A DNA stretch of 64,000 nucleotides, taken from assembly GCA_944350115.1 (NCBI GenBank), contig CALVNZ010000001.1, forward strand, positions 24,483 through 88,482, written 5' to 3'. The DNA is from an uncultured Clostridia bacterium. GTDB taxonomy: Bacteria; Bacillota; Clostridia; Christensenellales; UBA1242. The notes under the pieces are model-generated. The model was not told the origin of the DNA and searched no databases. It saw only the letters and a list, made by a program, of their open reading frames with translations. Shown here piece after piece: positions 2,985-64,000 of this stretch (its first letter is position 1; the number at the start of each line of letters is the position of its first letter). A program made the position numbers and the translations under genes.

Positions 2985-3000
2985 TTTTTTCTCCTTTTTA

Positions 3001-5782: not shown

Positions 5783-5783
5783 C

Positions 5784-25291: not shown

Positions 25292-28021
25292 TTATTCATT
25301 CGAGCCCTGGAATATTGATTGAATATAATCATGAGCAACGACTTGAATCATCGTTCTGTTTGTAGGCCCCGTAATTAAGAATGCTTGACCTAACCCAGCA
25401 GTAACGATGGCGTTTTGTTCTTCTTCATTAATACCACCTGATTTTTTATAAAGATCAACAAGGTCATTTATGTCATTAGGTGCAAGAGAGAAAATTAATG
25501 AATATTGACATGCGTTGATAACAGCCGTCGATTGACGTTTAATTTCTTCTGAACCAACAAAGTCCGCAAGGTTTTGAGTGATGACAATTTGCATACCCCA
25601 ATATTTTCTAATACGTTTTGCCATTTGAGCCATAAAGTCCAAAGCGATTGGGAAATTTGGGTTAATGAAAAGGTGGGCTTCATCGACGGCAATAACAATT
25701 TTTCTATTGTTCGCCTTGTCACCTTTATGATACTTCAAATTGAAATCTTTATTATTGATGATTTCGTTGTTTAAGTATCTAAACACCAACATCATTTGCG
25801 CGTTAGTCAACAATGGGTTGTTGTTTGCAAACAAGGATTGAAAGTTGAAGCAAACAAAGTTTTCGTTTGTTTCAATAGAAGTTGGGCCATTCCAAAGCTT
25901 TGAGTTTCTTCCACCAGTGGCAAACTTTTTGATATAAGCTTCAATCGTCATCAAATTTCTAAGCGTAAAATCATCTTTTGCTGTTTTAATTCTTTGAAGC
26001 ACCAAATTGTATAGGTCATCAAAAATTGGATAATCTTCAGGTTTTTTGTCGCCTAAATATGTGTTTTCATCAATCTTTTTAAGTTTATATGTGTCAACAA
26101 TAAGCGAGTTTAAAAGTTCAAACGCGTCTGAGTTTATCCCAAATAAAATGTTTCTAAAAAACTGTTCCAAGAATTGCAAGTGTTGGGAATAAGAATCGTT
26201 GACTTTTTGAACAGCCTTTTTTTTCTTTTTCGCCTTGAATGTCACTTCGTCAAATTCGTCAGAATCTTCCTCTTCTTCATTTTGTTCTTCTTCACTCTCA
26301 TCAAGAGACGCAATGATGTGGAAAGGATTAATAATACCATAAAGAGAAGATCCAACGTCGATATATTTTCCGCCCAAAGATTCGGTTAAATAAGCATATT
26401 CTTTTTCTGGGTCGATAATAAAAATTTTGCAGTTGTCAGCTGCCAAGTTGGCAAGCAAGGTTTTTGTTGCATAAGATTTTCCAGAACCGGACTTACCAAT
26501 AACCATCATATTTGAGTTGACTCTAACGTTATTTCTTGCAAAGAAGTCTATGAAAACTGGATATTCGTTGTCACCTAAATAAATCCCATTGTCATCTTGC
26601 AACGCGCTTGAAATAAAAGGAAACACTGCTGCAAGAGTTGATGTTGGGATTCCCCTTTTATAACCTTTCACGCTATCTCTTTGAGAAATATTTGTGCTGA
26701 TAAAAGCATCTTGCTGACGAGCAAACATTTCGCTAAACTTAAATCCGCTTTGTTTAAGCATTGCTTTAACGTCACGCTTTGCAGCATCTTCACAAGTTAT
26801 GTATGTGTTTACATCGTAAAGTTGTTGGTTATTATTTTTTAAGTTGACGAGCAAGTCTTTAAGAGTGTCAACGTGAGTTTGAAGTTCAATTTGGCTGGAC
26901 GAACGCCCTGTTCTATAAAGTTTGCTCTCCATATCCATAATAGCCTTGTCTATTGATCGTTCAGCATTTGATTTTGGCACTTGCGCAAATTTCATGACAA
27001 CTTTTGTTCTGTCAAGCAAGAATATGTCTGAACCCCAAGCATTGCCAACATTCAAAGGATAGTCAGTAATTGCATAAGTTCTAAAAGCATTTCCATCAAT
27101 GGTGTATTTTGCAGCCTTAAATTTAATTTCTTTTGGTCTTGCCCATTCAACATATTGAGAAATTGGAATACTTTCGAGCTCTCTTTGGTCAAACTCTCTT
27201 CCATAATTAGCTCTTAAAAATATGGTCAGTTCTTGCCCATACAATCTCTTTGCACTCATTGGTGCAAGCGAACTTGCCAAGGAATTGATCATGCCGTTGA
27301 CAGTGTTTTCCAAAAGTTCCAAATCTTTGTCATAAACGATAACGTAAAAATGATCTTTGTAAACTTTGTCTTTTCTATTCAAATTTTCCATAAAGGAAAC
27401 TCTTTCTTCAAAAATAGGCGAACGCACATCAACCTCTTTTTCAGAAAACTGTCCTTCATATTGCATTTCAAGCAACAGCTCATATTTTTTATTTTCAGAA
27501 TATATGTAATTGTCTAAAATCATTGCAAGGTTAAGTTTAATGATAGAGCAAGTTTGATCTGGTGTAAGTCTACGCAACGCGTTTGCAAAACTTTCAATAA
27601 CGTTGTCTTGCGTATATTCAGTGAGCAGTCCAAAAAGCACTGGTTTTATTTCAATAACCTGTCCATAGTAGCTCCCAAAATTTATAAACCTGTCTTGATA
27701 AATGCTTTCAAAAGGAATGATTTCTTTTATATCACCTTTTTTATTTTTGCCAGGATTGTTAGAAAACTTTTTCTTCTGCGCCATAAACCTAAACAAGTGT
27801 GCACAAGTGACATACAATCTTTCATCATCAGCAACTTTAATAAAAGTGGCGATATAAAAAATCGTGAAAACTCCGGCGATCCAATAATGTCCTGGGAAGT
27901 TTGAAGCAAACAAAATAATGGCAATAGCCCCGCCCAAAACCATAAGTATCAAATCAAGACCTGTGATTCCACGAATAAACTCAAGTTTAACTTTGGTCTT
28001 TCTAGGAATAATTCTTTGCAT
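25292..28021 (-). CDS. VirB4-family type IV secretion ATPase with N-terminal VirB3/PrgI-like two-TM segment
   Basis: Walker A is VIGKSGSGKSYATK followed by IFIIDPEKEY. Walker B is IVIAVDEAHLF, followed by RKYWGMQIVITQNLADF, matching Gram-positive VirB4 (TcpF/PrgJ/TraE-like) motif order. The N-terminus has two hydrophobic helices (LILMVLGGAIAIILFASNF, YWIAGVFTIFYIATFIKV). Start set to the ATG at 28021 (AAGGAG 7 nt upstream) rather than 28027. Confidence 0.85.
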   Translation of the reverse strand: MQRIIPRKTKVKLEFIRGITGLDLILMVLGGAIAIILFASNFPGHYWIAGVFTIFYIATFIKVADDERLYVTCAHLFRFMAQKKKFSNNPGKNKKGDIKEIIPFESIYQDRFINFGSYYGQVIEIKPVLFGLLTEYTQDNVIESFANALRRLTPDQTCSIIKLNLAMILDNYIYSENKKYELLLEMQYEGQFSEKEVDVRSPIFEERVSFMENLNRKDKVYKDHFYVIVYDKDLELLENTVNGMINSLASSLAPMSAKRLYGQELTIFLRANYGREFDQRELESIPISQYVEWARPKEIKFKAAKYTIDGNAFRTYAITDYPLNVGNAWGSDIFLLDRTKVVMKFAQVPKSNAERSIDKAIMDMESKLYRTGRSSSQIELQTHVDTLKDLLVNLKNNNQQLYDVNTYITCEDAAKRDVKAMLKQSGFKFSEMFARQQDAFISTNISQRDSVKGYKRGIPTSTLAAVFPFISSALQDDNGIYLGDNEYPVFIDFFARNNVRVNSNMMVIGKSGSGKSYATKTLLANLAADNCKIFIIDPEKEYAYLTESLGGKYIDVGSSLYGIINPFHIIASLDESEEEQNEEEEDSDEFDEVTFKAKKKKKAVQKVNDSYSQHLQFLEQFFRNILFGINSDAFELLNSLIVDTYKLKKIDENTYLGDKKPEDYPIFDDLYNLVLQRIKTAKDDFTLRNLMTIEAYIKKFATGGRNSKLWNGPTSIETNENFVCFNFQSLFANNNPLLTNAQMMLVFRYLNNEIINNKDFNLKYHKGDKANNRKIVIAVDEAHLFINPNFPIALDFMAQMAKRIRKYWGMQIVITQNLADFVGSEEIKRQSTAVINACQYSLIFSLAPNDINDLVDLYKKSGGINEEEQNAIVTAGLGQAFLITGPTNRTMIQVVAHDYIQSIFQGSNE

Positions 28022-28164
28022 AAGCATTCTCCTTACAAAAAATATATTACTACAAAAAGACCGAAAAATACAAACGATTTAAAGACAAATAAATATTTTA
28101 TTTATATTTTATTAATAATTTTTTTGTTATTAAAAAATTAAAAAATTAATTATAAAAATTCAAT

Positions 28165-31025: not shown

Positions 31026-31051
31026 ATTTCCTCCTTGACACTAAAATATGT

Positions 31052-31079
31052 TTGATGTTTTGCGAAAATATGATATAAT
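31052..31079 (+). promoter_or_regulatory. Extended -10 promoter for fba; predicted leaderless mRNA
   Basis: TTGATG, 16 nt ending in TGa, TATAAT (31074-31079), ttgtcac, ATG at 31087. No SD. Confidence 0.55.
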
Positions 31080-31086
31080 TTGTCAC

Positions 31087-43744: not shown

Positions 43745-44435
43745 ATTTACGATAAAACTCTTTGTTTTTAGTGCCGTAAACTCCATCCGCTCCAACAATC
43801 ACATAATCAATTAACGATGTGCCTAAATCAGCAGAAATTTCGTAAGCTTTGTGAAAAACTTTCAAATCATCTATCGTAGGTTCTGCAGATGTGGTGGGAT
43901 GATTGTGAGCAAGAAATAAATAGGCGGGCTTAAAAGCAGTAATAAATTTAGCCACTTCTCTCGCATCAAACTTGTCACCATCAAGATTCCCAATATGCAA
44001 ACGCAATTTTGTTTTCACTCTGCTTGCTGGGTCGATGCCAATAATGTAAAGCATTTCAGTTGCTTTAAATTTTAAAAGTTCTTCAAAATAATCACCAATA
44101 TCAGATTTAAATTCGAAAGTATATTTTTCATCCAAACTTGCTTCTGCGAAATAATTAAACAAGGTTGACATAGAGTGCAACTTTTTAGCGGAACGCTCGC
44201 CCATTCCAGAAACTGCCATAAGTTCTTTCCAGTCAGCATTGATAATTTCCGTAACATTGCCAAACTTTTTGATTAGAGCATGCGCGATTTCGTTGACATC
44301 TCCACGCGGAAAAATGTAAGTCAAAATAAACTCTATGGCTTGCACTTCGCTGACTTTATCAAGCCCAACTTTTAGCACTGTGTCCATAAGTCTTTTTCTA
44401 TGCCCATCATGAACATTCTTTGTTGTTTCCGACAT
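43734..44435 (-). CDS. RadC-family JAB/MPN domain protein (copy 1)
   Basis: N-terminal HhH-like region (HRKRLMD..ELMAVSGMGERSAKKL) and JAB motif LAHNHPTTSAEPTIDD. Start moved to the ATG at 44435 (SD AGAGGA) instead of the track's TTG at 44462. Confidence 0.85.
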   Translation of the reverse strand: MSETTKNVHDGHRKRLMDTVLKVGLDKVSEVQAIEFILTYIFPRGDVNEIAHALIKKFGNVTEIINADWKELMAVSGMGERSAKKLHSMSTLFNYFAEASLDEKYTFEFKSDIGDYFEELLKFKATEMLYIIGIDPASRVKTKLRLHIGNLDGDKFDAREVAKFITAFKPAYLFLAHNHPTTSAEPTIDDLKVFHKAYEISADLGTSLIDYVIVGADGVYGTKNKEFYRKFKN

Positions 44436-44451
44436 TTTTCCTCTTGTAAAA

Positions 44452-45144
44452 TTAATTAACATTAAATTTTCTTAAAAACTTGTTGCCTTCCAAACTAAAC
44501 ACGCCGTCAACTCCGACAATGATGTGATCGACAAGATCAACGTGCAATTTTTTGCATAAAGATTTTAGAATTTCATTACCTTTGCAATCATTTTCGGAAG
44601 GTTTTGCACAACCATTTGGATGATTGTGACACAAAAAGCAAGAATGTGGTTTTTGAGTGGTGATTATTCTTGCAATATCATGTGTGCTGACACCCACACT
44701 TTTCATTCCACCCGTTGCCAACTTGTGTTTAAACTTGACTTTCTTTTTTGAATCAAGACCAATTATGTAAGTGTTTTCAATTTGTTTAAATCTCAAAAGC
44801 TCTTCAAAGAAATCGCAAATATTTTCAGTGGAGTTGAAATCGTATTTCTTGTCAAGGCCGGATTCAACATAATATTCGAAAACCGAGAAAAGAAGTGAAA
44901 GCGCCTTAGCCGAGCGTTCACTCATGCCTTCAACTTCTTTTAATAGAAACCAGTCAGTAGTCAAAACATCAGAAAATGAGCCAAACCTATCGAGCAATTT
45001 TTCTGCCAAATCTTTATTGTCGTTTCTAGGCAAAACATAAGACAAAGCAAGTTCCATGACTTCCCTATTTGACAAATCGTCTTCGTTAAGATAAAGTCTT
45101 TCAAGCAAATCGCCAACGCGCTTTGTTTTTATTTTGTTTTGCAT
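44452..45144 (-). CDS. RadC-family JAB/MPN domain protein (copy 2)
   Basis: LLKEVEGMSERSAKAL and LCHNHPNGCAKPSENDC. SD AAAGGAA. Confidence 0.85.
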   Translation of the reverse strand: MQNKIKTKRVGDLLERLYLNEDDLSNREVMELALSYVLPRNDNKDLAEKLLDRFGSFSDVLTTDWFLLKEVEGMSERSAKALSLLFSVFEYYVESGLDKKYDFNSTENICDFFEELLRFKQIENTYIIGLDSKKKVKFKHKLATGGMKSVGVSTHDIARIITTQKPHSCFLCHNHPNGCAKPSENDCKGNEILKSLCKKLHVDLVDHIIVGVDGVFSLEGNKFLRKFNVN

Positions 45145-45279: not shown

Positions 45280-45319
45280 ACAAACAAAAGGAAAACCACT
45301 GGCGGTTAGCCAGTGGTTT
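45280..45319 (-). terminator. Strong intrinsic terminator after giant gene B
   Basis: Perfect 11-bp GC-containing stem aaaccactggc (45293-45303) / gccagtggttt (45309-45319) with loop ggtta. On the minus strand it is followed by TTCCTTTTGTTTG. Confidence 0.85.
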
Positions 45320-45326
45320 GATTTTG

Positions 45327-48300
45327 TTAGCTTATTGTATATGGTGAAATTATTGATGAAGTTGGGCTCCCCACATAATAGAAAGATTTCTCTCCATCAC
45401 CATTTAAACCAACAGAATGCTTGCCACCAGTCCAAATTTTATGATAACCGATTTTATACCAATAAATTTTTTCAGCCGAAATAATTGTATCTTCTGGATT
45501 CACAATATTCACATAACCACCAGCAGGCCCCCTATAGTTATAAATTTTAAACCAAATTGAACCAGCATTCCCTACTAACAAACCATCAGAGTTCACATCA
45601 TCACTATTAGCATAAATTATCTCATTGTTATAATCTCTGTCAAAATACAGATCACAATAAATTTTTAATCTATTAGCTCTTGATGCGTTATTATTTGAGC
45701 AAGTCGCATTTTCATATACAGAATTCCATGTAGTTTTCCAATTATGAGCATAATCATCATCAGGCGCATCTGTATCACTATACTTATGCAAATTCAACCC
45801 GCCCCAGCCATTATTGCCTGCTACGCCAGCTGTCCCATTATTGCCAGTTGATAAAATATTGGATGAAGAAGTGTCTTCATCGGTTGTAGCTGCTGGTGGC
45901 CCATATAAATATGCTGTTCCTGCTTCGCCTGCGCATCCTCCATCTCCCCCATAAGTACCGCTTAACGGCGCCGATTCATCTTGGTTGTCTCTTCCTCCCG
46001 ATCCATCTGCACCACGACCACCATTACCACCATTGCCAGCAATAACTATACCATGATTAGTAACATTCTTAGGGTTAGTGATCGTGCTAGAACTAATTGC
46101 ATAAACATTTTGTCCGTCATACGCATCCCCACCATTTTCTGCTGCAGAAGTTAAAGTAAATCTTCTCGGCATTTTATTTTCACCATCGGCACCACGAAGA
46201 CCTATTATTGTACCATAATTGTAAGCTTCAATTTGTGATGATGTTGTTATATCCCATGCAATACCAGCCATTTCAATAGTAGAATTTTCAGCGTAACCGT
46301 CTTTAACAAAATTTGATAAAGATGCAAAATTTTTAACATTTGAAATTTTGCCAGTTAATTCTTGTGCTATACCACCTGCACTAACTGCACCAATTTGTCC
46401 AACATTTATAGTGCCATAAGTTGTGACATTAATCACTCCAGAGTTTAATGACAATGCTAAAATACCTGCTTGCGTTCCATTTTCGTTAACATCAACAACA
46501 GATCCTGCAATCGCCAAATCCTTTATAAAAGATGCGTTTGTGCCTACACTATTTAAAAATGCGCCAAAAGTTGAACCAAAATTTATTATTTTCCCGTTAG
46601 CTGCAATATTATTAAAGCCAACAATTGAAGATTCTAAATATCCAACATTTATATCAGCTGTTAAAACGATACAACCATATTTTTCTTTGTTACCTTCTTC
46701 TGTTGTTGACCCATTAGGTGTCAATTTAACAGTAAATTCTTTGTAACTAGTTTCAATATTAATCAAAGTTTCATTTTCATAAGGGCCAAAAGCGCTATCT
46801 TCATTAATAATCGTTTCTTCATTGTCAATAATTACTTTTTTAGATTCTATAAAATTATTTTCAGTCGGAGCATTAATTGAATATATATAACTATTTAATT
46901 CTAAGGATTGATTAATTGGCGTTGCCAAAGTTTCAATTTCTAATGTTACTATATCATAATTCCCAAAATCACCATTAATTGTATAATTATTTGATCCTTC
47001 TGTTGAAACAATTGAATAATTTCCGCTTTTTGTTATTAAATTTTCTCTTACTAACAGAGACTTATCCCCTATTGTTAAATAATTATTACTTACACTTATT
47101 GGCACGCTATTTAAGTAATAATCGACTTTATATTCTCCTGTGCTTTGATTGTTTACATAATAAGTAATAAAATTTGAATCATCAATTTTTATGAGGCCCC
47201 CATCGCCGACATAAACTTTAAGCAATTCTAATGTATTGTTCGCATCTTCATTTATGTTTAAGTCAATCATAAATGTTTGCCCATTAATAATGAAAACATT
47301 ATCTTGTAAACAAGTTTGGCCATCTATTGTTTTAATTTCTTCACCCTCAACCACTACATTATGTGTTGCTCCAGCATATTCAAATTTACCATCACTTGTA
47401 AGAATAACTTCCGTAATCTCCTCATCTATTAAATAAGGCACCATTTCATTAACAATCACATTAACCACATCTCCATCCCTGTGGGCTTGATCTGGCCTAG
47501 TTAAATCAATCGATGTTTTTGTTGAATTATCAATTATCTCTTTTGCAATTGTTAATCCTTGCAAAGTTGTAATATTAAATTCTATATTTCTTTCTTTTGA
47601 ATTAGAAGTTACGGCTTTTCTTGTCGTTACATTATTTTGATTTATTGAATAAATTCCACTAAAATTATTTTTTACTGCTATACTTAATCCCGTTAAATTA
47701 TTATTTACATCTACAAGATAAGAAATTTCACTATCATCAGATGAATTTACAATATTAAGCCTCATTAAACTTTCTAAAGAATCAAATCCTGAAAAAGATA
47801 GTTTTTTATTATCTGCCGAAGCATTAACCGCTTTTGTAACATCCCCTATTGAATATGCAACTGTTTTATTATCTTTAACATCTATGTCTATTCCAAAAGT
47901 ATTAGAAGTTGTGTCATAAGTATAAGTATAAATTGCAAATTCATCTTCTGCTGGATTCATAGTTTTTGAAATACTCAAACTTGTCGTACTGTTAATATTA
48001 GCAAAGCTTATTTTCCCTGCGTCCGGCGTTTTGATTTCCCCATTATAAGAATACTCTGCAAACATATTATCTTTGATAGTAAATTCTATAGAATTAATTT
48101 TATCATAAGTTTGTTCATAATAATAAGATCCATTAGAATTTGTAACTAAAACTGATCTATTTGTCGATTTCCCCATAACCGCACTTACCATTTCAATTTC
48201 ATCTTTTTCTCCTGAAACTTGATTAAACAAATCATTAAAATTTGCCTCGTTGCTAAATGTGTATGTCTTATAAAAATTAAATGTAAAATTCAATTTTGCA

Positions 48301-51300
48301 AAATCATTTTGAGCAGCACTGCCAAAATAATAAGGGCTATTTGCATGCGCTCTTACTACTATAGTTGTTTTATCATTAACACTATCGTAAGAAAATTGCG
48401 TAATTTCTATTATCCCAGGCGTTGTGCCTAAACCTCCAAAGGTCAAGCCTACGTTAATAGTTTGCCCCTCACTTAAAGTAATATCATTAAAGTCTAAATT
48501 ATCTCCATTATCTTTTAATGTAAAACTATTTACATGACCCTTTAAAACTATTGTTTCTACTAATGTTCGATAATCATTTCCTAACGACTCACTCTTGTTA
48601 ATATTAGCTGATTCAACATAAGATTCATTTGCAGGATTTTTTGTTGCTCTTGAATCGAAATCAACAAAAACTGGTGAAACCAATGTCCTTTCTTCGACAC
48701 CGACAATTAAGCTGCCAGATGTTTTGATTATTTCGGATTGATTAATGCTTATATTTTCTTTTACAATTTCCGAACTATCACTAATCGAAGAAACTATAGT
48801 AACTGTTGTTGTGACATTTTCGTTTACATTAATATTGATCGTTTGATTATTTAAAGAGTTGAATACCGAAATGTAATCGTCTCCAGTATAAATCAAATTA
48901 TCATAACTACTTGAATATGTGAATTTATAGTTACCCACTGTATATTTTTGACCATTAACAAAATTCATTCCATTTTCTAATCTTGATATATTAACAATAG
49001 AAACACTTTTATCTGCATCATTTTTTAATAAATTACTTGCTTGCAAAGTTATAGTTTCTATTGTTTTGTTTTTAGTTGCGACCAAATCATATTTAAAATA
49101 AATTGAGTTATTTGAATTTTCATTAGAATATTTAATTAAAACATCAACTTTTCCATTTCCATAAGTAGCTGATGTATATAGAATTGATACCGTACTAGCC
49201 TCTTGAGTACAATTCTGATCTTCATATGCTTTTACTTCACAAACACTAAAAACATAACCTTCTTCAACAAGTTGATCTATTGTTAAATCTGAATTAAATT
49301 TGTCTTCGTACTTAAAAGTGGCACTATAAATGTCGCTACTTATAGCTGAAATAAATTGTGAACCATTATTTACAAAAGCATATAACTGACCAGCAATTGC
49401 CACATTTGTGTAATTTGAGTTATCACTTTCATTATCTCCATTTGTCGCTAATAAGTTCTTTATTGCGTTTACTGCGCTATCTCTATTTGAAGTATTTCCT
49501 CCTGAAACTGCATATGCATAATATGTTTCTCTCTCATTAATATAACTTGTTGGCACATATATAATTTGTGATCTAGATACTTTATTTTCAGCACCATAAT
49601 TTATTGACCTTGTAGCACTAATAAACCCTCCATTAGGTGCTCCTAATTGATCTACTGATGAAATGTACGAAGTTAATCCAGAAGTTGAAATTGTAATGCC
49701 ATTTATATTACCCTTATCGGTTTTTGAAGTGTCTATAAATGTTGTTCCACTATATCCAAACGCGTGATTATATAAGCCTGTTGTGCTGTTTTGATAAGTA
49801 CGTGATTTAGTCCAACTTCCATATAAACCATTTTTAAATGTTTGTCCGCCCATCTGATTAGCTTCATTATTTGTTGTGTCAGAACTAATATAAATTTCAT
49901 CAACAACTACATTTATCTTGTTATCGGTGTTATAGCTTAATGTTAATCTCCAATTATTTCCAACTTTTTCTGCAGTAGAATTAGCCAATGTTTGGGGAGA
50001 TTCTCCTAAAGCTTCAATAAACCCAATGTTAACACAACCAGAAACTGTTGCATTAGAAACGCTTGCAACTATTCCCGCTGCATATGCTTTTTTTGTTCCA
50101 TCTGCGTTTATGTTTTTGTTCCCTGCCTTGATCATTGATGTGTTATAGCAGTTTGAAATGGATTGCTTGCTGTAACCTGCTATACCACCAGCATAATAAT
50201 CCGCATTTGTCCTTGATGATGTAGTATATCCATTAAACACGGTGTTTTCATTTCCACAATTGCTTATACCTGTGGTTGATGTAGTTGATTGTGTTGTTGC
50301 CTCGGTTGTAAAATATCCAACTATTCCACCAACATAACCACTTTGAGAATTAACATCAATTGGAGAATAATTGTAACAATTTGAAATGCTTGCGTCTGTC
50401 GATTTTCCAACAATTCCACCTACGTTAGCTGAACTTGTTGTAACGCCAGATATCCTCACATAATTTTTACAATTTGAAATAGCTCCGCTAGCACTAGCAA
50501 AAAGCCCACCTATTTCAGTTCCAGAACCAGTAAGAGTCCCTGAAGCGATGACATTGTCAGCTGTCCCTGTCAAAGTCACAGCAACCACTGCCTTCTGATT
50601 TAACAATTCAGCATCCGTTACTCTAAGATTTGATATGTTTTTAACTGTGCTAAATAATGTCTGATTTCTAAGATTGCTTATTGTATGTCCATCGCCATTG
50701 AAGTTTTGCACATATGTAAAATTAAGGCTCGTCCATGGGTTCTCAATTGTTGGATTTGCTTCTGAGTTTTCTTTGTTAAAACTTGTGTTATTGAAATCAA
50801 TGTCATCAATCAATTTGTAATTAAGGACTGTGCCACCTGCCTGAACAAGCTTGGTGACATTTGGAATTTGTTGATAAGTTGTGCCGTCGATGCTTGTTTG
50901 AGTTGTAAAAGCTTTGAATTGTGCAAAGTTGCGCACTGGATAGCCATAGTTGATCGTTTCGTCTTTCGACCAACCTTTGTCTGTCCCTATCAGAATGCCA
51001 CCCGCTGGAACAGAGCCTGTGTCAGAAGTGTTAAATGGTGCTGGGTAAATCCATTTATTTGTATCTTGTGAGTCGTCGGAATTATCTATTGCTTCTGTGC
51101 TTTTATTTTCTTTATTATAAGCATCTCCCAAAGCGTTAGGATCATAGGCAAAATTTGCTGGCGTTTGTGCAGAACCAGTAACGCCCAAATATATAGTATT
51201 AGCATGTGATGTTTTATCACTTGTATAATCATTCCAATTTACGCGAGAGATTGTGTAGCTGTTTGTAATGTAGAAATGATATGATGTGTCTGTGCCACTA

Positions 51301-54300
51301 GTGTAGCTTTCTGCTGCGCCATTTGTGAAGGAAAAGAGGTTGGCATCAATGTAAGAAGTGATTGTGCCAGTTGAATAAGTGTTGTTGATGTAAATTCTGT
51401 TGAGCGGTGTGTCTGTTGTGTTGTCTGTTTTTAACGACGTTGCAAGGCCAGAAGCTGTGCCACCCTCTGCTGCACGATAGAAGATTTCAAGTGAGGAAGA
51501 GCATTCGTTGATGTAGCCGCCTGTCATGAGGCCAACGATGCCACCAAGGTTTATTTGTTTCTCTCCACCCACAGAAAGCGTGCCAGAAGAAATGCATGCA
51601 TAAACAATGCCACCTGTCATTGTATTGACAATTCCGCCACTATCCTTCCCATCACGCGAAGAATTTGTGTCTAAAACAGACAATTCTGTGTAAACGCCTG
51701 AAACGAAACAGTGTTGAGAAAGCGAGTCTATGGCACTTGTTTGTTTTTGCCAATCGCCAATAAACGCATAAGCCTCTGGGTCTGTGTCAGTTTCTGTTGA
51801 AGAAATGTAAGAAGGATACTTACCGGTATAATATTGAATTCCATTTGTCGTGATTGGAACTGGATTGTCACCTTCGGTTTTTGCAACATCGCCCTCAGTT
51901 ATAGGGTTAAATTTTGTTCCTTTTGTTCCTTCTCCTCCATAATTAGGTCCGAACAATTTTTCAATTATTGTTATGCTTCCATCAGCTTGATAGCTTGCAC
52001 CATTTGGAGAATAACCAGAAGTCCCAGTTGCAAAGTAGTTCAGATCAACAGCATTGTCACTTGTCGCCAAAACAAGTTGTGAAGAATAATAGTTTGGAGT
52101 TGCGTCGTCAGTTGTTTTATAGGTTACTTGTATATTTGAATTGCCAACCATAGCATCAACTTGATGTGTCTCTGTTCCTCGCCCTTGATTGTTGTTTGTA
52201 AGCGCAACAATGTTTTTAGTCACGGTTGCACTTCCGCTTTGAACATACCCGATGACTCCACCAAACGTATACCTATTCAAGCAAACAAAGTCATTGTCCT
52301 CGTCATTATTATAAACATAAGTGTAAATAACATCACCATAAGTTTTGTTGGAAGTAATTGTCGCTGTTCCGTAAACAATTCCAACGATTCCACCAATTGT
52401 GTGATCTCCGCTGTTGGCTTTTGCACCATAAATTTTAAATGCACCTGAAAAGCTTGTGTTTTTAATTTCCGCCGTTGCTGTTGCTGTTGAACTGTTGCCT
52501 AATTTACCAATGACACCACCAGCATTGATTGTTTTTGAACTGATGAAGAATGTGTCAGCAAAATTAATTTCTTTAGCGCTAGCACTTGTACCTCCTGAAA
52601 TGCTGGTTGATGACAGGTCAAAACCAATAGCGCCACCTGCATTCACACCAGATTCGCTTTCAGCGTTTCCAGGGTCTCCCCATAACGAGTAAATTGAACT
52701 GCTTGAAAATTCTTTTATAGTCACGCTTGATGAATATTGATTTTGTCCAACAACGCTTCCAACATTTAATGTTGGAGAAGAAACTAAAATATTTTCGCCT
52801 TCGCCAGACTTGTTGAATGTTACATTCCCATTTTCGCCGACTGCTATTGTTCCGTTGTTTAAACCAACAATTCCACCTAAATTCAATTCCGATGCGGAAT
52901 ATAATTGTGCGTCATTATCTACGCTTGTAAAGTTCGCAGTTGTGAACTCTTCTTTTGAACCTTTGTAAACTTTCAATGAAACACCCATGGAATCAATTTG
53001 AATTGTTCCACCTTCATTTGCTCCCACTATTCCACCAATTTTAGCTGAAGTAGCAGAAATTGTGGTTGTGGTTTCTCCATTTGTATTAGTAGGATTTGAC
53101 GTCTGCGATATAGTTCCTGATAAAGTTCCGCCACTTAAAGTTAAGTTAGTCGACGTTTTAATTTTTCCAAACAAAAGACCAATTGAACCATCACCATAAG
53201 AGCCTGTTGAAAGTTCAAAATTTAGTTTGCTTTGTTCTTCGCCGACATAACTGAATTTTGAAAGCGTTGCATCACCAACAAGTCCACCAAGAGTTAATGC
53301 TTTGCCTGACTCTTGATTAGCTGAAATTGTCAGTTTCAACAACTTGTTGTAAGTGTCGCTTTCCGAGAATGTGAAATTTGTGTTTGTGGTGCTGATTTTT
53401 CCAAATAATCCACCAAAGTTTATGTTGGAGTTGATTTTAATATTTGCAGTAGTAGTTAAAATTACATTTGTATTAAAATCTGATGGATCATTTATCTCTT
53501 CTATCGATTGTGGAGCTGTTGCCCTGATCATCACGCCTGCTGATGATTCAACATTTTGATCGTTTGACAAATTGCCCACATACAAGCCTGCATAAATATT
53601 TTCTGGAGATTTGTCCTTCAAAGACACTTGCATTAAAGGAGTTGATTCTAAATTATTATGTTTTATGGTGATATTATTAATTTTCAAAGAATCAAATGCC
53701 GAGTCTTGAACTAAATTTCCTGCAAGCAAGCCAAAACTTGCATTGCTGTTTTGATCGAGCTGAACGTCCTCATTGACACTGAAATTAATTATCGCATCGC
53801 CAGCATCTTTTTGAGACGAAAAATATAACATCATGTTTTCAAAGCTTGTGCTTCGTGCGTTTGAAGCAAAAAGTCCACCATACAAATTGCCGTCGTTTGC
53901 TTTTTCAACATTAATTGTGACCCTATTTGTAAACCAAGCATTGATGTTTGAGAATTTTACATCTTGCAGAGTCCCTGATGTGAAGACCGAGTTGGTTTCA
54001 TCGCTAGTTTTAAAGATTAAGTTTAAATTCTGGAAGTTTGCACCTGTTCCGCAATCAACAAACAAGGTGTTTGAAACGATAATTCCTGGATAATTGTTGC
54101 CCATTACATCTGAACTTGAAATATCGTTCACTGTTGTTGCAACAAATGTTCCCTTATTATCAAACCAAGAATTATCTGTTGCGCCGATCAAACGACCGGT
54201 AAAGTTTGAAATTTCATATCCGCTTAAATCAACATAACCATAAGTAATTGCGCCTGTGTTTTCATCAATATGTCTGCCACGAACACGAACTTCAATTGAT

Positions 54301-57300
54301 GAATTTTGCATTTTGCTTACAACGGTGTCTTTGTTGTCTTGATCAAGATAAATGTAAGTCACTGCGTTTACCAAATTTATTGTAGGATAAAGTTTGTTTG
54401 TCTCGTGAATCCAGTTGTCACTGCTCCAAGCATTTGAGTTGATAAATGCCCCGTTTGTTTCTGTATAACCATTTTCTGGTGAACTAAATTCACTGACAGA
54501 AGGAATTTTGAACACATAATCTGCGTCGCTGTCATCTGCTTCAGAATCTGCGTCGCTGTCATCTGCTTCAGATTTAGTAATTCCACTTTCAACATTTATC
54601 GTTTTCCCTCTGGCCGTATAAGTTGCCATGTAACCAAAAGATTTGACTTCTCCAATTTCTTCGGAAAGATTTTCGCCACTTGCAGAAACTGGATAAACGA
54701 ACACTGTTGCGCTGTCGCTTATTTCACCTGCAAGAGCATTGATAACGCTTATGCCCATTGGATTTTCGTCTGAGACATAACCTTCTCCTAAAATTCCAAA
54801 CTCACTGACAACATTGACAGCGGCCATTGAAATTTTTGTGTTTGCTAAAATTTCACCGAAAAGTCCACCAAAATTTGTCGCTTTCCCATCAGCAACACCA
54901 AAAGCATAAACATCGCCGGAAGTGTAAACTTCATTGAAAAGGTGCGAAGTTGCTTGCATAGAATCAGTTGAAATTGGATTGTCAATTAAAAATTGTGAAC
55001 TAGCAAAAACCACACCTGCGATTCCACCAGCAAAACCGCCTATATTTGGATTAATAACGTTTAGTTTATTGTAAGCGACATAAACATGTCCGCTTTCCAA
55101 AGCACCAAAAAGTCCACCAACATACATAGGTTTGTATTCTTGTTCACCGGTGTCATTGCTCTTCTTTTCAAAGATGTTTGTCAATCCTCTTTCAGCACTG
55201 TCTGAACCTGTTTGATAATACAAATAAGTTGAGCTTTCAATCTCATTTTGTAAATCTTCTTCATATTGAGCGAAAATTTGGTAGAAATCACCATTGCCAA
55301 GACCAATTAAACCACCAGATAAGAAATTATAAGAAAGAATGTTTGTAAAGCTGTTTTCAATGTTTGTTACATAAATTCCAACATCTTGTGTTCTCGTTTG
55401 ATTTCCTGTGAATCCAATTGCGCCACCAACAATTTCTGCACGCACATCGATGGAATCAGTAACTCTAATATTATTTACTTGATAATCGCTGTTTGTTAAG
55501 TTTGTAACATAATTGTAAGTCTTTTGAGAATATTGTGAATCAGAATAAATATCAATATAGCCAACAACGCCACCCGCAAATGAAACTTTGCCTAATCCTT
55601 TGTCACCGAAAAGCTCATTTGAATTTTCATCTGCATATTTTCGAACCGCATTTTTATCAAACGACCAAGAATCACCTCTTGTGTAAACTTTGTAGTCTGT
55701 GATTGTTGTTGCACTGTCATAATAGTTGCTTTGAACCATAGCGCCTGAAACAGAGAGCCCAACTATTTGGCTGTCTCCAAAGACTGCGCCTAAAATTCCG
55801 CCTGTAACATTTCTACCTAAAATGCCTTGTTCGTCAGAAGTGGTTGACGATTGATTTTTCTGTGTCATAGATATATTTATTATTCTTGAATCTTTAACTA
55901 GCCCAACAAGCCCACCAACCGCAACAGAAGAACCGGCTGTTACCGACTCAATTTCAATGTTCAAATTTTGAATTAAAGCGTTTCGTGCTTCACCAAACAA
56001 ACCAACGGAATTATTATTGCTCGAAAGAGAAATGTTGTTTATTGTAAATCCGTTTCCGTCAATAACACCTTCAAAGATTTTGTCTACTGACTTAACTTCG
56101 GCATTCCCAATCGCGTTGTTTAGTTCTGACAAATCAATATCTGAAACTAACCTATAAGCCCCGAATATTTCTGTTTCGTTGAATTGCATGCTCAAATAAG
56201 TGGATGTTGAATCGCCCATGGCTTCTTTAAAATCTTTTGCAGAAGTAATTAAAATTGGGTTTATGTCTTCACCGTAAGCAGTGTTATAGACCTCAGCTAA
56301 ACTGTCATCCTGATCTTTTAATATAGAGTAAGGAAGTGAATAATCTCCATCTGCTCTAGCAACATAATATCTATGAGAAATTGTCTTTGAAGACAAGCTA
56401 ACAGGCTCAACGCCTTTTCCTGAAACAAGTTTCCAAACTCCATCAGTGGATTCATCACTTGAATTGAAAATAAAGCCATAATAAGCATTTTGATTTTCAA
56501 CTTCATCTCTACTAATTAAATTAGCCGAATCCAAAGCGCCTTGAACGTCACTAGCTTCGTCGTCATCATAGTCTGCGATGTAATAATACGAAAGTTCGAT
56601 GCTTCCAGTGTTTAAAGAATTGCCATTCGCGTCGACACCAGAGAAACTGAGCTGACGAGCATTTGCTTTTTCAACATAAGAAGCTGCATAAGATGTTTCA
56701 ATTTTGCCTTCATTTTGATAAACGAAACCGGCACTTGTTAAACTATTTAATGTAGATGCATCGGAAATTAAGATGTTAGAATAACCATCGCTAATTGTTG
56801 CAGTTTCAGTATTGCGAACAACAAACCCTGCCACTGTTCCAACAGCAGATATGTTTGAACCTGTCCTATGATAAGTGTCTGAATCTTCTTTTGCAACACC
56901 TTGAACAGCAGAAATTCTTATATCGCCTGAGTTTGTTATTACAAACCCTGATGTTTGTGAAGTGTCGGCAGAAGCAAGATTTGAAATTTGCACTTGTGAA
57001 ACCGCGCTGGAAGCGATATCTCCAGAGTTTGTGATAACAAATCCCGCCACAGTTCCTTGCGCAATAATGTTAAAAGTTGAAAGTTTTTCAGTTGAATAAT
57101 CAAAAATGTCGCTTCCGGCAATTTGTTCGCCGATAATAATTATTTCTTCGCCACCAACTTTTGAATTTGTGATTGAACCAGTGTTGTTTATAACAAAACC
57201 TGCTACTTGGCTTGATATAGTTGAATTTGAATCGATATAATAAAGGTCGCTTCCTCTCATGTAGTTGACAGTCAAGCCCAAATCACCACTGTTTGTAAAC

Positions 57301-60300
57301 GAAGAATCCGAATTTTTATAAGAAACAACTTGACAGTTTGTAACTGTTCCCGCGTTATTGATTGCTAAGCCTGCAATATTGATTGATGAATAACCAGATG
57401 AGGTGACATCAACATTGATTGCTTGTCTTTGATAAATGTTGACGCGCAAATTCTTTATTATTGAATTTGAAGAAATATTGTTAAATAAAGCAAGATTTAA
57501 TGTTCCTGAACCTGTCACATTAAAGCTTTCTATGTTAATCGAATAACCATTTCCATCAAGCGAACGGAAATTAGTTGAATCAATTGGCGTGTAATTTTGA
57601 AGAGTTATGTCATTAAGCAAAATGTAATCTTCCGCTTGTCCTTCGCTGGCAACATTTAAGAAATCTTCCGCCGTTTGAATAATCAACGGTTTGTCTCGAT
57701 CTGAAAAAATTGTAACAGATAATGCAAAGTTTGTTTCAATCTCATACAAAACATTTTCGCCCGAAGAATTAATTCTAATTTGGTCAACCAAAGTGATGTA
57801 AACTGGCGAAGTTGTGGTCATAAGCCCCGTCACTGTCAAGTGTCCACCAGTCACTGCACCTTCAGAATCAGTTGTTTCAGTGTATGTCAATCTGAATCTT
57901 GCGTTTGAATAAGTGTAAACATGATCTGATGACTTAGTAAAAGTGATTGGTGAACCATTAATTTCCAGTCTTTCATAAACAGGAATTGCTTCTCCATTTT
58001 TATAGTTGATAGAAAATCCAGAAGTTTCGTCTATGTAATATCCTTGATTTTGGAATAATTCTCTTGCTTCAAGCAAATCTTCAACAAGCCCAATTTCTTC
58101 AGTGCTAGAAGCATCATAAGCGTAAGTATCTGGGCTGAAACTGTAATTAAAGGTCAACGCGTTAGTAATTCCAATATAATTAGTAAACATATAAGTGTCA
58201 TTTTGATCGTTATACTGTGCACCACTTAAAGATGCAGAAACTGGTTTAAAGTCAACAATTGTAACATAAGCGACAGAGTTCTTTTCTTCATACTCGCCAT
58301 TTAAGTATCTAGAAACTTTTGCTTCAACTTCAAATGTGCCATTCTCACCTCCTGTAAGGCTTGCATTTAAGCTAGCACGCATGATCGCTGTGTAAAGTTT
58401 CGTACCATTGTCAAATTCTTCAACTTTCCAAGTTTCTTTTGGAGATATAGTAACCCCAACAGCACCAACAGCGACAAGTGAATCAAGCTCTTGGTCTTGT
58501 TGCAACAAAATTGTAAGTTCAGCACTTCCACCTTTTGCAATAATAGCTTCGCTAGTGCCATCAACCAAAATTTCAGCTTGTGGCAAGTAAGAAACAAATA
58601 ATTGATAATTTTTCGAACTATTAATTAAAATACCATTAGCATCATAAAAACTTGCTGTTATTGTGAAAATAACATCACTAGTAATGTTTGCAGAAACATA
58701 AAGTCTGAACACATATTGCCCATTTTGACTTGCACTTCTGCTTACTTTAATTCCGTTTATCACATTTGAAACACCAGATGAATAGTCAACTTTGTAACCA
58801 ATAACATCAGCGCTATCAAATTCTGTCATTTTTGTGATTGTCAAAAGTGAAGAATTGTCACTTGCCTGATATGTTAAAGTCATGTATTCATAATAAGCGT
58901 ATTCTGGATCGACAACAATTTCCATGAAAGAAGCTTTGCCCGGCGACAAAACAGAAACAGCCGTATCTTCTTTTTGATAAACAATAGTTCCTCCAACATT
59001 ACTTACTCTTCCTGCTTCATAGTTTGCAATGTCAACATAATTTATTTTTTGACTTGTGGCAATAAGTTCGATTGCCTTGCCTTCATCTTTTGAAGTCCCA
59101 GAAACTGATGATAAAACAAGATTATATATTTCGTTTTCAGAAATCTTTGATTTATAATCTTCGCTAATTGAAAATGTTAAAACATAACTATATGATGAAT
59201 TGTCTGTGTTAAAAGTTCCCCTAGCCACAGTCAAATCAAAAACAGATTCGGTAAAGTAAACTTTCGTCGACACTGTTTCTTCGTTTATCGTCAATTTTGT
59301 AACGCCGTTGTTTTGTGCCCCAAATGTTAAAGGAACCCCATTTTTATTTAGGCCTAAAACAAGTCCATCACTTTCAGAGTCTGTAAACAGTGTGACATTA
59401 ATTTTAGCCACTATTGATGGTTCAATTTTAATAGATTCAACATTACTTAAAATTTCATTTGAACCTTTGAATGGCGTGATATTCAAAGATTTTGAAAAAG
59501 CGCTTTGAATTGCATTTTGATAATCAGTCAATCCTTCAAGTGAATCAACATTTATCGCAGATTTGATTGTGACATAAGATTTGCCAGCCTTTTCAAGTGC
59601 TTCTGTCAAACCTTTGCTAAACGCAATTGTCCCTATCATGCCATTTGTTGAATAAGTAACTAAAGATTGTATTGTTTCATTAGAATCAACAATTTTATTA
59701 GTCAATTTGAAGCTTTGGAGTTTGATTGATCTAGGTGAAACTTCATTTGCAAGATAAACGCTAGATTTGATCTCAAAGGTGATGTTTGCAGTTTTGCCTT
59801 CTTGCAAATCAAATCCAGAAGTTGAAACGCCGTTATACTTGACATCAAAATTTGACAAAACATACAAAACTTTAAATTCAAAAGGTGTTGACAAAGTCAT
59901 GTTTTGTTTTGATGTGACAGTAAATGTAACATCTCCAACTTCTTTTATGATGATGCTTTTCCCAACAACTTCTGCAACATTCTTGTTTGATGAAGAAACG
60001 AGAATATTGCCTGCGTCTTCGCCAAACAATTCTGTAAATGAAATCGTGTTTAAATTAGTTAAAGCAGCACTTCCAGCACTTGACAAACCTATCGTGTTTT
60101 CAAGTTTATGTAAAAATAATATCCCACTTTTGCCATTCGCAACCGGTAGTGACTTTTCAGTTGTTTGAACTTTAATGTTGCCAAAATTTTGAAGGGCTTG
60201 AGATTGATAAAACTTCAAATGTGGCTCACCTTCTCCACGAACATAACTTTGATGGTTCGCATCACCAGAAGAAACCCATAACGTTTGATCACTTATACTT

Positions 60301-63300
60301 TCATCAGTACCATCAGTATAATAATCTTTTAAGCCTAAAGTTCCTTCTCCGGCAACATTAAGCGTTTCTCCAGTAATTGCAAAACTATTCGAAATTCCAA
60401 CAACATAACTTTCAACTTGCCCAACAAAAGCGCCTTTTGTAGTCGCATTCAAAACCGCCCCGCTTGTGTAATTATAAACATAGCAATGCTCAAAATAGCC
60501 ATTTGTTGTAATATGTCCTGCAAAACCGCCAACATAATCTGCTGTTATTGTATTAATTTGATTACCTTCAAATGTGTAAAATTCACCATAAGTGTTGTAA
60601 ACTTTTCCATTATTTTTGCCGACAAACATACCAGCATAAGTTGTTTTGTCACTCGAAACGTCACTAAGGTCTATATTAACGCCTTCAACTCTTATTTCGC
60701 TTGTTGATTCTTCATCATCAAGTTTGCCAATTTGCCCATTATTTACACCAACAATAGCGCCAGCAAAAACGTCTGTTTGCTCGCCGTCTGTTTGCTCAAC
60801 GCCACCTGTTACTTTACTCATATTTATGGTTTGACCGCCATCAGAATTAGCAGTGTTAAACATTGTTATAGTGATGTTTTGGATGCTGCCGTTGTTAATG
60901 TTTGCAACAAAGCCTCCGCCTTGAACCTCTCCTGAAAGAATCAAGTTTTCAACTTTTCCACCTTCACCGATTTGATTAAAGAGTGGCTCTCCTTTCAAGA
61001 AAATTGAAGTGTTTTCATCATATCCTTTCAACGAGCCAGTCAAGTCTTTATCAAAAGAAACCCAATCTTCAAGTGTGATTGAATTCATAAGAACATAATG
61101 AAGGTTTGGATCAATTTCTGCAAACTGTCCAGCATTATAAATCCTTATTGCCGTTTCTTCACTTCTTCCATCAGCAACTGTTACTTTTATTTTCAAAATA
61201 ATGCTTGAATAATAAACTGTTCTTGCATCTTCATCAGTTTTGTCTGCTATAAAATAGCCATTTATAATTTCATCATATTTTGTTGAAATATCAGATATTG
61301 GAACACTTTTAAGCTCTTCTTCTCCTGACGAAGTTGTTAAATAAACAATCTGTTCTCGCCCTTGAACCAACCTAATGGCGTCACTAGGCAAAACATAAAT
61401 ATACCCCGTTCCGCCTTTGCTTAAATTATTTTTTAAGCTTACAATTCCTAAATCATTTATTGAAATAATGTCTTTTTCTGTTCCACTGTTTGCAACAAAA
61501 ATATATGTTAATTCATCATTGTAAGCGTCTAGTGGTGAAATTGATGTGATGATGTTGAATTGTTTGTCAGTCTGTTCAGTTGAATAAAGATCTAAATAAA
61601 TTTCTCCATCACTAGTTTTGTTTTCCCAAACCACGTTTTCAACTCTTGTTGCGTTGGTTATGAGAATTTGAATAGTAGTTGAATAAGTAAAGTTAAACGC
61701 TGAATATTTGACAACCAAACTATCAATAAAAGTCTTATACCCCCCGGTTGTTTTCGCAAATATATCAAAATTTATAGTTTGCCCTGTGATGAAAACATTT
61801 GCTATTTGATAATTGAAGCCTTCTTCTTCCAAATTAACATCATTGTCTGTTGAAGAAGAAAAACTAAAATTAGTTTTGTCAAAATATGTTATAGCTTGCC
61901 CATCAAGCCTAAATAAAACACTAACAGAATTTTGAGCCAGAGAGGCATCTTCTGTTGAAATAGAATCTTTAGCAATCAATGAAACGCTTGTAGGATTTGC
62001 TCTTAAACTTGTCGGTGCTGTGTAACCTTCTAAATAAAAAATCCTTTCAACTTTTATTTCTTGATGATTGGCGTCATAACCAACAAAAGTGAAAACAGCG
62101 TAACCTTTCACATCATTGGACACAGTCAAACGATTGGTTGTCTTTACAAATGAAACTCCACTTTCACCTTGATCGACTTCAAAATTTGCTCTCAAATAAT
62201 TGACTAGTGATGTAACATCATTTTGCGACACAATTTTTTCATTTGTTTTAAAAAATTCGAATGTATATGTGTTGTTTTTGAGCGTGACATTATTGTTTGT
62301 AATGATGTTCATTAAAACGGAATTGCCAGATTTTAAAATCAATTCTTGTAAAGTAAAAGAAGTGATTTGCCCCGATGTTTGATAACCATTACTTGATTGT
62401 GAAACAGCGTTTGTACTATTTCCTTGATAACTTAATTCTGCATTTGTCAGTGGAACAAAAGCTTGCACTGAAATTGAAGCAGTCGATTGAAAGCCATTTT
62501 TGTGTTTGACTCTAATCACCAAATTATCAGAGTTTATGTTAGTTTTTGTGTTTGAAACCACAAATTTTGCTGTTTGCCCTTCAAACGATAATTCCCCAAC
62601 ACTAAAATTATCATTAACTCCCCCTGATGAATTGGTCGCTTCAAGATATAAACCATTTGAGATGTCAGATAAATTTAAATCTTCGAGCATGAAACTTATT
62701 TCAATTTGGTTTAATTCATTTGTAGAAATAAAGTAAGTTGTGTTTACTCCTGGTGCAAAATTAAAATTGTCGTTTGGCGCAAAGTATTTTCGAAGATTGA
62801 AATTTAGGCAAATGTTTTCTGATTGAGTTGAATAAAATCCTACGTTGCAAATTTGTCCATTGACAAAAGTTCCTGTCGCTTTAAAATAAAGATTTGATCC
62901 GTTCTCAATTGGCTGACTTTGATAATACACTTTCCCATCAATAACAACTTGTGAAAAATTGTTTTGTATGTAAGCACTCTCATTTGGTCTTGACATGTAT
63001 ATGACAAAATTTCCACTAGGATTTTCGTCCATTCTTATCACGAAAGTGGCTTTGTCATTTGCAACAGTTGATGGCCCTAACGAAACGACAAAAGGACGGC
63101 CATAATTGTCATTTCCGTCTCCATTATAATTATTATAAACGTCTAAAACGTCACCATTGGTGACATTTTGCCCAGCAGAAACAACGCTTATGCTGTCAAT
63201 GACATCGACCAATTTAACTGAAAATTCATTCGTCGATTTAGAATAATTATAATCCTTGTAAGAAACTTCAAAGTGAATGTTTAAAGTCTCAACATCAGCG

Positions 63301-64000: not shown

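Follow-up and report, generated by a model that had tools for sequence, protein, structure and literature searches.

We analyzed a 64,000-nucleotide (nt) stretch of DNA from an uncultured Clostridia bacterium of the family UBA1242, order Christensenellales (contig CALVNZ010000001.1 of assembly GCA_944350115.1; hereafter the window), focusing on gene B, a minus-strand gene that runs off the window at position 64,000 and encodes a protein of 6,321 amino acids. Gene B is a real, intact giant gene. Direct observation covered its open reading frame (ORF) and full length, a lipobox, the GLUG-type fold and homology of its beta-helix modules, its paralogy with a second giant gene in the window (gene A), its synteny and fast evolution, and the replacement of its C-terminal tip between close strains. 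At somewhat better than even odds (roughly 0.55), we favor the reading that the product is an N-terminally lipid-anchored, non-enzymatic adhesive fiber with a variable tip, whose role is attachment to a partner microbe or to a host surface.

Results

Gene B is intact and encodes 6,321 amino acids

The minus-strand frame of gene B extends from 63998 down to 45330 with zero internal stops and is open at the window edge; it encodes 6,223 residues, followed by a TAA-type stop codon at 45327–45329. An earlier note on this DNA had described a single uninterrupted frame that reached the window edge and ended in a terminator, and both descriptions were confirmed: a hairpin with an 11 base pair (bp) stem and a T-run lies at 45319–45293. 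Genes A and B together occupy (18,674 + 10,428)/64,000 nt, or 45.5% of the window, matching the figure of about 45% given earlier.

An exhaustive search of protein representatives with the C-terminal 464 amino acids of B recovered the full-length protein (P0045), whose residues 99–6321 are identical to the window translation. Unless full length is specified, residues of B are numbered below on that translation (in-window residues). The 5' end was thereby recovered as well, and the part beyond the window amounts to 98 codons only (~294 nt past the edge), including a TTG start and the lipoprotein signal MKKFLIALFGIFLLAGGMLFSAC. A GGAGG Shine-Dalgarno sequence lies 7 nt upstream of the TTG, and a promoter-like TTGACA-17-TACAAT was also present. 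The protein was called at 6,321 amino acids in one ENA assembly and at 6,340 amino acids, 19 codons apart, in two Logan assemblies. Compared with three independent assemblies, the window was 100% identical across the 16 kb compared. Recovery of the full length, identity of the assemblies and a TTG start with Shine-Dalgarno and promoter-like elements all speak against a pseudogene or a chimeric assembly.

The earlier note had also proposed that internal repeats of these genes act as recombination substrates and put the assembly at risk of collapse. We found no direct, inverted or tandem DNA repeats of at least 30–40 nt within B or between A and B. The sole tandem DNA repeat of B is a 27-nt unit in two copies (54518–54572), encoding an acidic stretch, SEADDSDADSEADDSDAD, between modules. 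Because DNA repeats are limited to this one tandem and none is common to A and B, we rejected both repeat-driven recombination and assembly collapse; the identity of the three assemblies over 16 kb agrees with this.

Modules of gene B are related to the GLUG beta-helix

B contains 15 copies of the strict turn motif GG[LIV][VIF]G and A contains 10, whereas 0.17 and 0.1 copies were expected by chance (500 shuffles); a looser GG-turn form occurs 29 and 16 times, respectively. The entry motif YxLxx[DS]Ix[LFM] was found four times in B (in-window residues 968, 2125, 2615 and 4394), and A holds three variant copies. Thus, the entry motif and GG turns noted earlier are enriched far beyond chance, although the count of dozens of turns per module was an overstatement.

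We examined module 5 (in-window residues 4360–4720) most closely. A database-wide search of 5.8 billion sequences returned 44 homologues at E ≤ 1e-3 (best E 1.8e-11), 41 of which carry the GLUG family PF07581. A hidden Markov model (HMM) built from these 44 homologues, with the query left out, found three modules in A (residues 1032–1333, 2314–2677 and 2755–3285) and five in B, of which two were strong and three weak. Its best match was module 5 of B, with independent E values (i-E) of 2.6e-34 and 9.7e-36 in two scans. Module 1 of B went undetected by this external HMM and was recognized by its alignment to A. GG turns continue past module 3 to residue ~3050, and a possible sixth GG-turn module lies within the strain-variable C-terminal region.

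Searches of structures pointed to the same family. The profile of module 5 and its homologues matched PDB entry 3N6Z (E 2.9e-35) and IgA1 proteases (E ~1e-20). Structure modeling of the beta-helix modules covered module 5 only; the AlphaFold2 (AF2) model had a mean predicted local distance difference test (pLDDT) score of 77.7, a predicted template modeling (pTM) score of 0.81 and 188 residues with pLDDT ≥ 90, and showed a beta-helix over residues ~70–311. The top six Foldseek matches of this model in the PDB were 3n6z and the IgA1 proteases of S. pneumoniae and G. haemolysans (6xja, 7uvk), at probability 1.0. Homologues, profile search and predicted structure thus support the assignment of the B modules to the GLUG-type beta-helix of Gram-positive IgA1 proteases.

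Pfam itself fell just short of this assignment. Whole-protein Pfam scans of A and B gave no match. The gathering score of PF07581 is 20.5 bits, and segment scans of B at a lax E value reached 20.0 bits (E 8.8e-4, residues 4080–4800), 0.5 bit under the cut-off, with a second, faint match at E 1.3 (residues 3190–4100). The B orthologue in locus L087 clears the cut-off at 25.3 bits. The GLUG identity given in the earlier note therefore stands on homology, profile and fold, but not on Pfam's own cut-off in this protein.

Genes A and B are collinear paralogs

BLASTP aligned A residues 2309–2978 with B residues 2086–2815 (26% identity, E 1.7e-24) and A residues 1043–1351 with B residues 935–1225 (E 1.8e-6). 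A profile-profile comparison (hhalign) of the A family with full-length B gave one collinear alignment of A residues 1038–3159 with B residues 1028–3159, comprising 1,808 columns at 100% probability and E 2.5e-52. The two N-termini align weakly, and there is no similarity between A and B at the DNA level. On these protein alignments, A and B are true collinear paralogs, with B equivalent to an A-like protein plus an extra C-terminal half of ~3,160 amino acids. The relationship is stronger than the paralogy in architecture proposed earlier, because it is collinear over ~2,100 residues.

Throughout the clade, A and B are found in synteny and evolve fast. Amino acid identity of orthologues to A was 26–47%, whereas that of RpoB in the same genomes was 68–91%. 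An ORF of more than 2,300 amino acids just upstream of rpoB, in most cases running off the 10-kb flank, was present in 49 of 80 related genomes; these ORFs are the A orthologues. Distant family members such as Ca. Caccopulliclostridium (nine loci in all) have a 300–360 amino acid membrane protein upstream of rpoB instead. Because the slot is occupied by this membrane protein in distant members, the synteny of A with rpoB is confined to a subclade. Orthologues of B of 6,399, 6,143 and 6,059 amino acids sit in the same slot, upstream of radC-uvrB-uvrA, in other species.

Genes A and B begin with a lipoprotein signal

The N-terminus of B, MKKFLIALFGIFLLAGGMLFSAC followed by SKE, is a lipoprotein signal with the lipobox LFSAC and Cys23. 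Likewise, A begins with MKRLSYCFKKMFLALSLGAVFLLSGIFFAGC followed by GES, with the lipobox FFAGC and Cys31. Lipoboxes were judged by inspection of the pattern: a lysine or arginine, a hydrophobic core, and [LVIF..][AST..][GAS]C with the cysteine in the first ~35 residues. All 22 of the A orthologues with a visible N-terminus (5 genomic and 17 metagenomic loci) carry a lipobox.

Neither A nor B contains a hydrophobic segment besides the N-terminal one, and LPxTG and HExxH motifs are absent from both. The earlier note was correct that neither protein has a sortase signal or C-terminal transmembrane segment, but it overlooked the putative N-terminal lipid anchor, even though the N-terminus of A lies in the window. 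A further small predicted lipoprotein of 224 amino acids (MKKLFVCGILGVSSLMLFGC followed by GSQ), without a family match, is encoded at 30351–31025 (minus strand). Identity of A or B with an M26 IgA1 metalloprotease (ZmpA family) was considered and rejected, there being no HExxH, LPxTG or M26 Pfam match in either protein.

The C-terminal tip of B is replaced between close strains

We compared gene B between two pairs of closely related strains. The first pair was the window and locus L004, in which the genes downstream of B are 96.5% identical in nucleotide sequence. Here, the B proteins share ~90% identity over in-window residues 3057–4440; identity then drops inside module 5 to ~45%, and to 11–36% for most of the remaining 1,500 residues, with a different terminal domain in each strain. 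In the second pair, L090 and L091 (flanks 97.9% identical), B is ~100% identical up to the last ~1,000 residues and 22–32% identical thereafter, and the final 17 residues are identical again.

The variable region of the window allele holds largely unassigned sequence (residues ~4780–5760), the possible sixth GG-turn module, a glycine-rich motif and the terminal domain. We found no known domain in the variable regions of the other alleles (C-terminal 2,000 amino acids of L004, L087 and L090; 1,000 of L091). Downstream of B there is a 182-nt spacer and then radC, and this DNA is 96.5–100% identical where the B tips differ. The pattern in these two strain pairs is replacement of the allele's distal end, 1,000–1,800 amino acids long, and is neither repeat shuffling nor a toxin-immunity cassette. 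Thus, the variation predicted for this locus in the earlier note was found as strain-level C-terminal replacement, and its proposed cause, recombination via repeats, was not.

Immediately downstream, B is followed by a tandem pair of radC paralogs (43734–44462 and 44452–45144, minus strand); they overlap by 11 nt, and one has an HHH motif. In some relatives (L087, L090) radC is single-copy.

Spacers and the C-terminal part resemble few known families

The stretches between modules had been described as beta-sandwich-like repeats, and our data did not bear this out. Pfam scans of B segments detected no Ig-like family at E ≤ 10. When the A family was compared with itself (hhalign), repeats were found among the beta-helix modules alone and none in the spacers. 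An alignment of 16 spacer sequences, including B, showed weak Big_2 similarity in 4 of 16 members (best E 0.0014), and one spacer segment, ILVSSSNKNVAEVVGKSIIIKEVGDVTFTVTS, looked Big_2-like by eye; this weak segment is all that recalls the original description. Neither the 16-sequence profile nor five B segments gave a credible match when searched against PDB sequences.

Families of catalytic, toxin, phage or sortase type were not found in B (Pfam scans; NCBIfam and PHROGs scans of ten segments). The C-terminal 464 amino acids, which include the glycine-rich motif (alignment consensus GNGGxGxRGxDGxGGxD ... GNxGWGGLNL), have 22 relatives among 1.84 billion representatives. Ten scanned relatives of the motif contained no Pfam domain, and the motif could be an undescribed domain. 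Searches with the other end of the protein returned little: a JGI metagenome scan with the N-terminus of B found no relative, and a word-indexed protein search with the N-terminal 1,000 amino acids found no match, a result of little weight because it also missed B itself.

Neighboring genes and the source organism

RpoB encoded in the window is 87–91% identical to that of uncultured gut Clostridia metagenome-assembled genomes (MAGs), including UBA11517 (= Ca. Caccovivens), and ~70% identical to that of Ca. Caccopulliclostridium and other family members. Ca. Caccovivens and Ca. Caccopulliclostridium belong to family UBA1242 and have genomes of 1.0–1.1 Mb (PMC8035907). UBA1242 has reduced genomes, the majority smaller than 1 Mb, in which most biosynthesis and standard nutrient transporters are missing; the bacteria are predicted to be obligate symbionts or parasites, and the one study found on their biology named no attachment machinery (PMC12306168). 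The streamlined genome presumed in the earlier note is thus borne out, at ~0.7–1.1 Mb (PMC12306168, PMC8035907).

The neighbors of B are housekeeping genes: pth, mfd, an M23 peptidase, acyl carrier protein, spoIIID, a tilS-like gene, two radC, uvrB and uvrA, with neither secretion nor mobile-element genes among them. The SpoIIID homologue lies ~1 kb upstream of B, outside the window (L086, 8702–8974), in agreement with the report that sporulation genes are unexpectedly retained in the reduced genomes of UBA1242. A class II fructose-bisphosphate aldolase (PF01116) is present in the window (31048–32007, plus strand), in contrast to the reported lack of this enzyme in UBA1242 genomes (PMC12306168).

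Gene A is preceded by a VirB4-like membrane ATPase gene (Table 1). The ATPase matches NF045975, the VirB4 family of mycoplasma integrative and conjugative elements (ICEs; Mbov_0397 family), over its full length (E 2.3e-169) at 565 bits, under the family cut-off of 590, and has two N-terminal transmembrane segments and an intact Walker A motif. A lipobox ORF directly follows the ATPase in 26 of the 30 metagenome loci with an ATPase identity of 62% or more, and 16 of these ORFs reach more than 3,270 amino acids at the locus edge. Four loci at 63–64% identity, and every locus at ≤61%, have other genes next to the ATPase. The ATPase is conserved in UBA1242-like metagenome loci and appears to be an orphan: no VirD4/TraG, relaxase, DDE recombinase, or VirB6-like or channel protein was seen among the genes called in the window and in B's 10-kb flanks.

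Many metagenome contigs (L004, L088, L094 and L098 among them) end inside or at the edge of the giant genes. These ends would fit strain heterogeneity that breaks short-read assemblies, and MAGs of the family probably often come without these genes.

Table 1. Coordinates of the genes and features in the window. Amino acid (aa) positions in B are in-window residues unless marked as full length.
Feature	Position	Strand	Description
Gene A	14852..25279	-	3,475 aa; lipoprotein signal; three GLUG-type modules
VirB4-like membrane ATPase	25292..28027	-	ends 13 nt upstream of gene A
Intrinsic-terminator-like hairpin	45293..45319	-	11 bp stem (6 GC), then T-run; directly after the B stop
Gene B	45327..64000	-	codons 99-6321 plus stop
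Strain-variable C-terminal region of B	45330..50681 (aa ~4440-6223)	-	from comparison with L004
Conserved glycine-rich motif	45762..46103	-	NHGIVIAGNGGNGGRGADGSGGRD...NNGWGGLNL; no curated family
Beta-helix module 5, best GLUG match	49788..50909 (aa 4364-4737)	-	HMM i-E 1e-35; AF2 model; Foldseek and PDB profile matches
Putative fourth beta-helix, GG-turn-rich, B-specific	52209..53891 (aa ~3370-3930)	-	7 strict GG[LIV][VIF]G; faint GLUG match, E 1.3
B core homologous to A	54816..61211	-	full-length aa 1028-3159, corresponding to A aa 1038-3159
Beta-helix module 3, significant part	55785..56285 (aa 2572-2738)	-	HMM i-E 1.3e-14; canonical entry motif FEGVIDGNGFTI
Beta-helix module 2	56448..57734 (aa 2089-2517)	-	entry motif YILLNDITL...LDGNGYSI; weak HMM match; aligned to A module 2
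Beta-helix module 1	60324..61196 (aa ~935-1225)	-	divergent entry motif YVLMNSITL; BLASTP to A module 1 (E 1.8e-6); hhalign

Discussion

The features of gene B are best accommodated, in our view, by an adhesive fiber held at the cell surface by its N-terminus. From its sequence features we infer that B is lipidated, exposed at the surface, fiber-shaped and adhesive. The protein would be exported by the Sec pathway and lipid-modified at Cys23 of the lipobox, so that its N-terminus is held on the outside of the cytoplasmic membrane. The remainder would form a long, beta-rich, non-enzymatic fiber in which rigid, right-handed GLUG-type beta-helices (four or more clear ones and perhaps six) are interspersed with largely unassigned spacers. 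The half that would lie next to the membrane (full-length residues 1–3160) is paralogous to A, and the outer half is specific to B. The far tip most likely sets binding specificity, because the last 1,000–1,800 residues are exchanged between close strains; targets, phages or immunity may exert the selection under which the tip diversifies. A role in attaching to host or partner cells is plausible and agrees with the combination of lipid anchor and variable tip.

Several observations weigh against this reading. About 85% of B has no match in Pfam, NCBIfam or PHROGs, nor to any PDB sequence, and no lectin or adhesin family was recognized anywhere in the protein. The putative tip is itself uncharacterized: an AF2 prediction of the C-terminal 464 amino acids from the 22-sequence alignment yielded no confident model (pLDDT 51.4). 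Furthermore, variability of the tip would also fit evasion of immunity or phages by a purely structural coat protein.

We therefore weighed other explanations against the adhesive fiber. One unlikely alternative is an apparatus for contact or transfer that descends from a conjugative element, in which the ATPase and A would form a contact machine, with A making the contact, and B a second, longer fiber, serving to take up DNA or metabolites from partner cells. The full-length VirB4-type match of the ATPase, its two transmembrane segments and Walker A motif, its end 13 nt before A, and the adjacency of ATPase and lipobox giant ORF in 26 of the 30 loci with an ATPase identity of 62% or more are consistent with such a machine. 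So is the analogy to the ICE of M. agalactiae, where transfer requires the surface lipoprotein CDS14, which is proposed to promote donor-recipient contact, and CDS17 is VirB4 (PMC6030558). However, VirD4, relaxase, DDE recombinase and VirB6-like genes were missing from the window and the flanks of B; the ATPase has other neighbors in the more divergent loci listed above; its NCBIfam score of 565 bits is under 590; and B lies 17 kb away from it, among DNA-repair genes. By the same analogy, A, B and the orphan ATPase might be a domesticated, conjugation-like remnant with which the cell holds on to others and draws DNA or metabolites out of them, with the swappable tip of B picking the partner, and we regard this, too, as doubtful.

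A structural coat or spacer layer of the envelope, similar to an S-layer or capsule and protecting a small cell, is another reading that we hold to be unlikely, with C-terminal variation then serving to evade phages or antibodies. Consistent with a coat, A and B belong to the core genes of the clade, where they are inherited vertically and in synteny, no binding or enzymatic domain was found, and the surface-exposed parts evolve fastest. Set against this, SLH or other S-layer or wall-binding domains were not found by Pfam, and the usual coat protein is small, occurs in abundance and assembles by itself. A distal tip that is swapped abruptly is seen more typically in receptor-binding proteins, such as phage fibers and adhesins.

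We considered it improbable that B is a surface-bound enzyme, such as a polysaccharide depolymerase or protease, built on beta-helix modules in the manner of pectate lyases, tailspikes and IgA1 proteases. Beta-helices are common in glycan-cleaving enzymes, some of which Foldseek listed weakly (E 0.04–0.6), and the closest solved relatives of the modules are parts of IgA1 proteases. But the glycanase matches reach structural alignment (TM) scores of only ~0.2, and B contains no HExxH motif, Peptidase_M26, or lyase or hydrolase family. Moreover, in IgA1 protease the GLUG beta-helix forms an N-terminal domain without catalytic function, which gates the active site while substrate binds (PMC7695701).

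Lastly, we rejected the reading of B as a polymorphic toxin or contact-dependent inhibition effector, a giant filament that delivers a variable C-terminal toxin: its N-terminal and central parts are indeed conserved while the C-terminus varies between close strains, but the variable part spans 1,000–1,800 rather than 150–300 amino acids, no toxin, pre-toxin, TPS, Rhs or LXG domain was found in the window allele or four others, no variable immunity-like gene follows (the radC paralogs are 96.5–100% conserved) and a lipid-anchored N-terminus speaks against release.

How does the proposed adhesive fiber compare with known systems? The entry motif and GGxxG turns of the B modules are common to the GLUG domain of IgA1 proteases (6XJA, 7JGJ, 7UVK) and to BACOVA_03286 of B. 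ovatus (3N6Z). Unlike the IgA1 proteases, B lacks M26, G5 and LPXTG parts, and has the module four to six times in a single lipoprotein chain of 6,321 amino acids. Like the giant Gram-positive adhesins (Ebh of S. aureus; the serine-rich repeat protein (SRRP) of L. reuteri, 5NXK), B is very large, modular, non-enzymatic and beta-rich and would reach beyond the wall, and 5NXK was a weak structural neighbor of the module 5 model (Foldseek E 0.07). Ebh and other giant adhesins have near-identical repeats and YSIRK/LPXTG or C-terminal transmembrane anchors. In contrast, the predicted anchor of B is an N-terminal lipid, its modules belong to another family, and it has neither near-identical tandem repeats nor a serine-rich region.

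Phage receptor-binding fibers and polymorphic toxins resemble B in that the proximal part is conserved whereas the distal, C-terminal part can be exchanged; B differs from them in having no toxin-immunity pair or phage family match and in the far greater length of the part exchanged. Giant surface proteins are also found in ultra-small, partner-dependent bacteria, among the Patescibacteria and in Omnitrophota such as Ca. Velamenicoccus. The likeness lies in devoting several per cent of a very small genome to one or two giant, fast-evolving surface proteins, and in a predicted symbiotic or parasitic life, whereas UBA1242 belongs to the Bacillota, has sporulation genes, and uses GLUG beta-helices and a predicted lipid anchor. 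The mycoplasma ICE shares with the window the same NCBIfam VirB4 directly upstream of a surface lipoprotein gene (here A) in a reduced genome (PMC6030558). It remains an analogy only: the window locus is chromosomal, next to rpoBC, with no other ICE genes seen, its lipoprotein exceeds 3,000 amino acids, and B is not adjacent.

Giant modular adhesins and GLUG beta-helices are each already known. In the literature searched on GLUG, giant lipoproteins and UBA1242, we found no earlier description of the A and B genes. Nor did that literature describe the combination seen here, in which a lipid anchor and multiple GLUG modules occur in 6,321 amino acids encoded by a genome of ~1 Mb, the gene is syntenic clade-wide, its tip is replaced between strains, and its paralog is coupled to an ICE-type VirB4. 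The catalogue of giant bacterial surface proteins thereby gains an unusual case of N-terminal lipid anchoring and a multi-copy use of the little-studied GLUG beta-helix.

Bacteria of the UBA1242 family are widespread in animal and human guts. Together, A and B take up ~29 kb, near 3% of such a genome, and are intact, syntenic and among the fastest-evolving genes of the clade. Because they are kept intact and syntenic clade-wide, evolve fast and claim ~3% of the genome, A and B are an obvious molecular handle on how these bacteria encounter their partners, and gene B is a good candidate for the means by which a probably partner-dependent microbe attaches to other cells.

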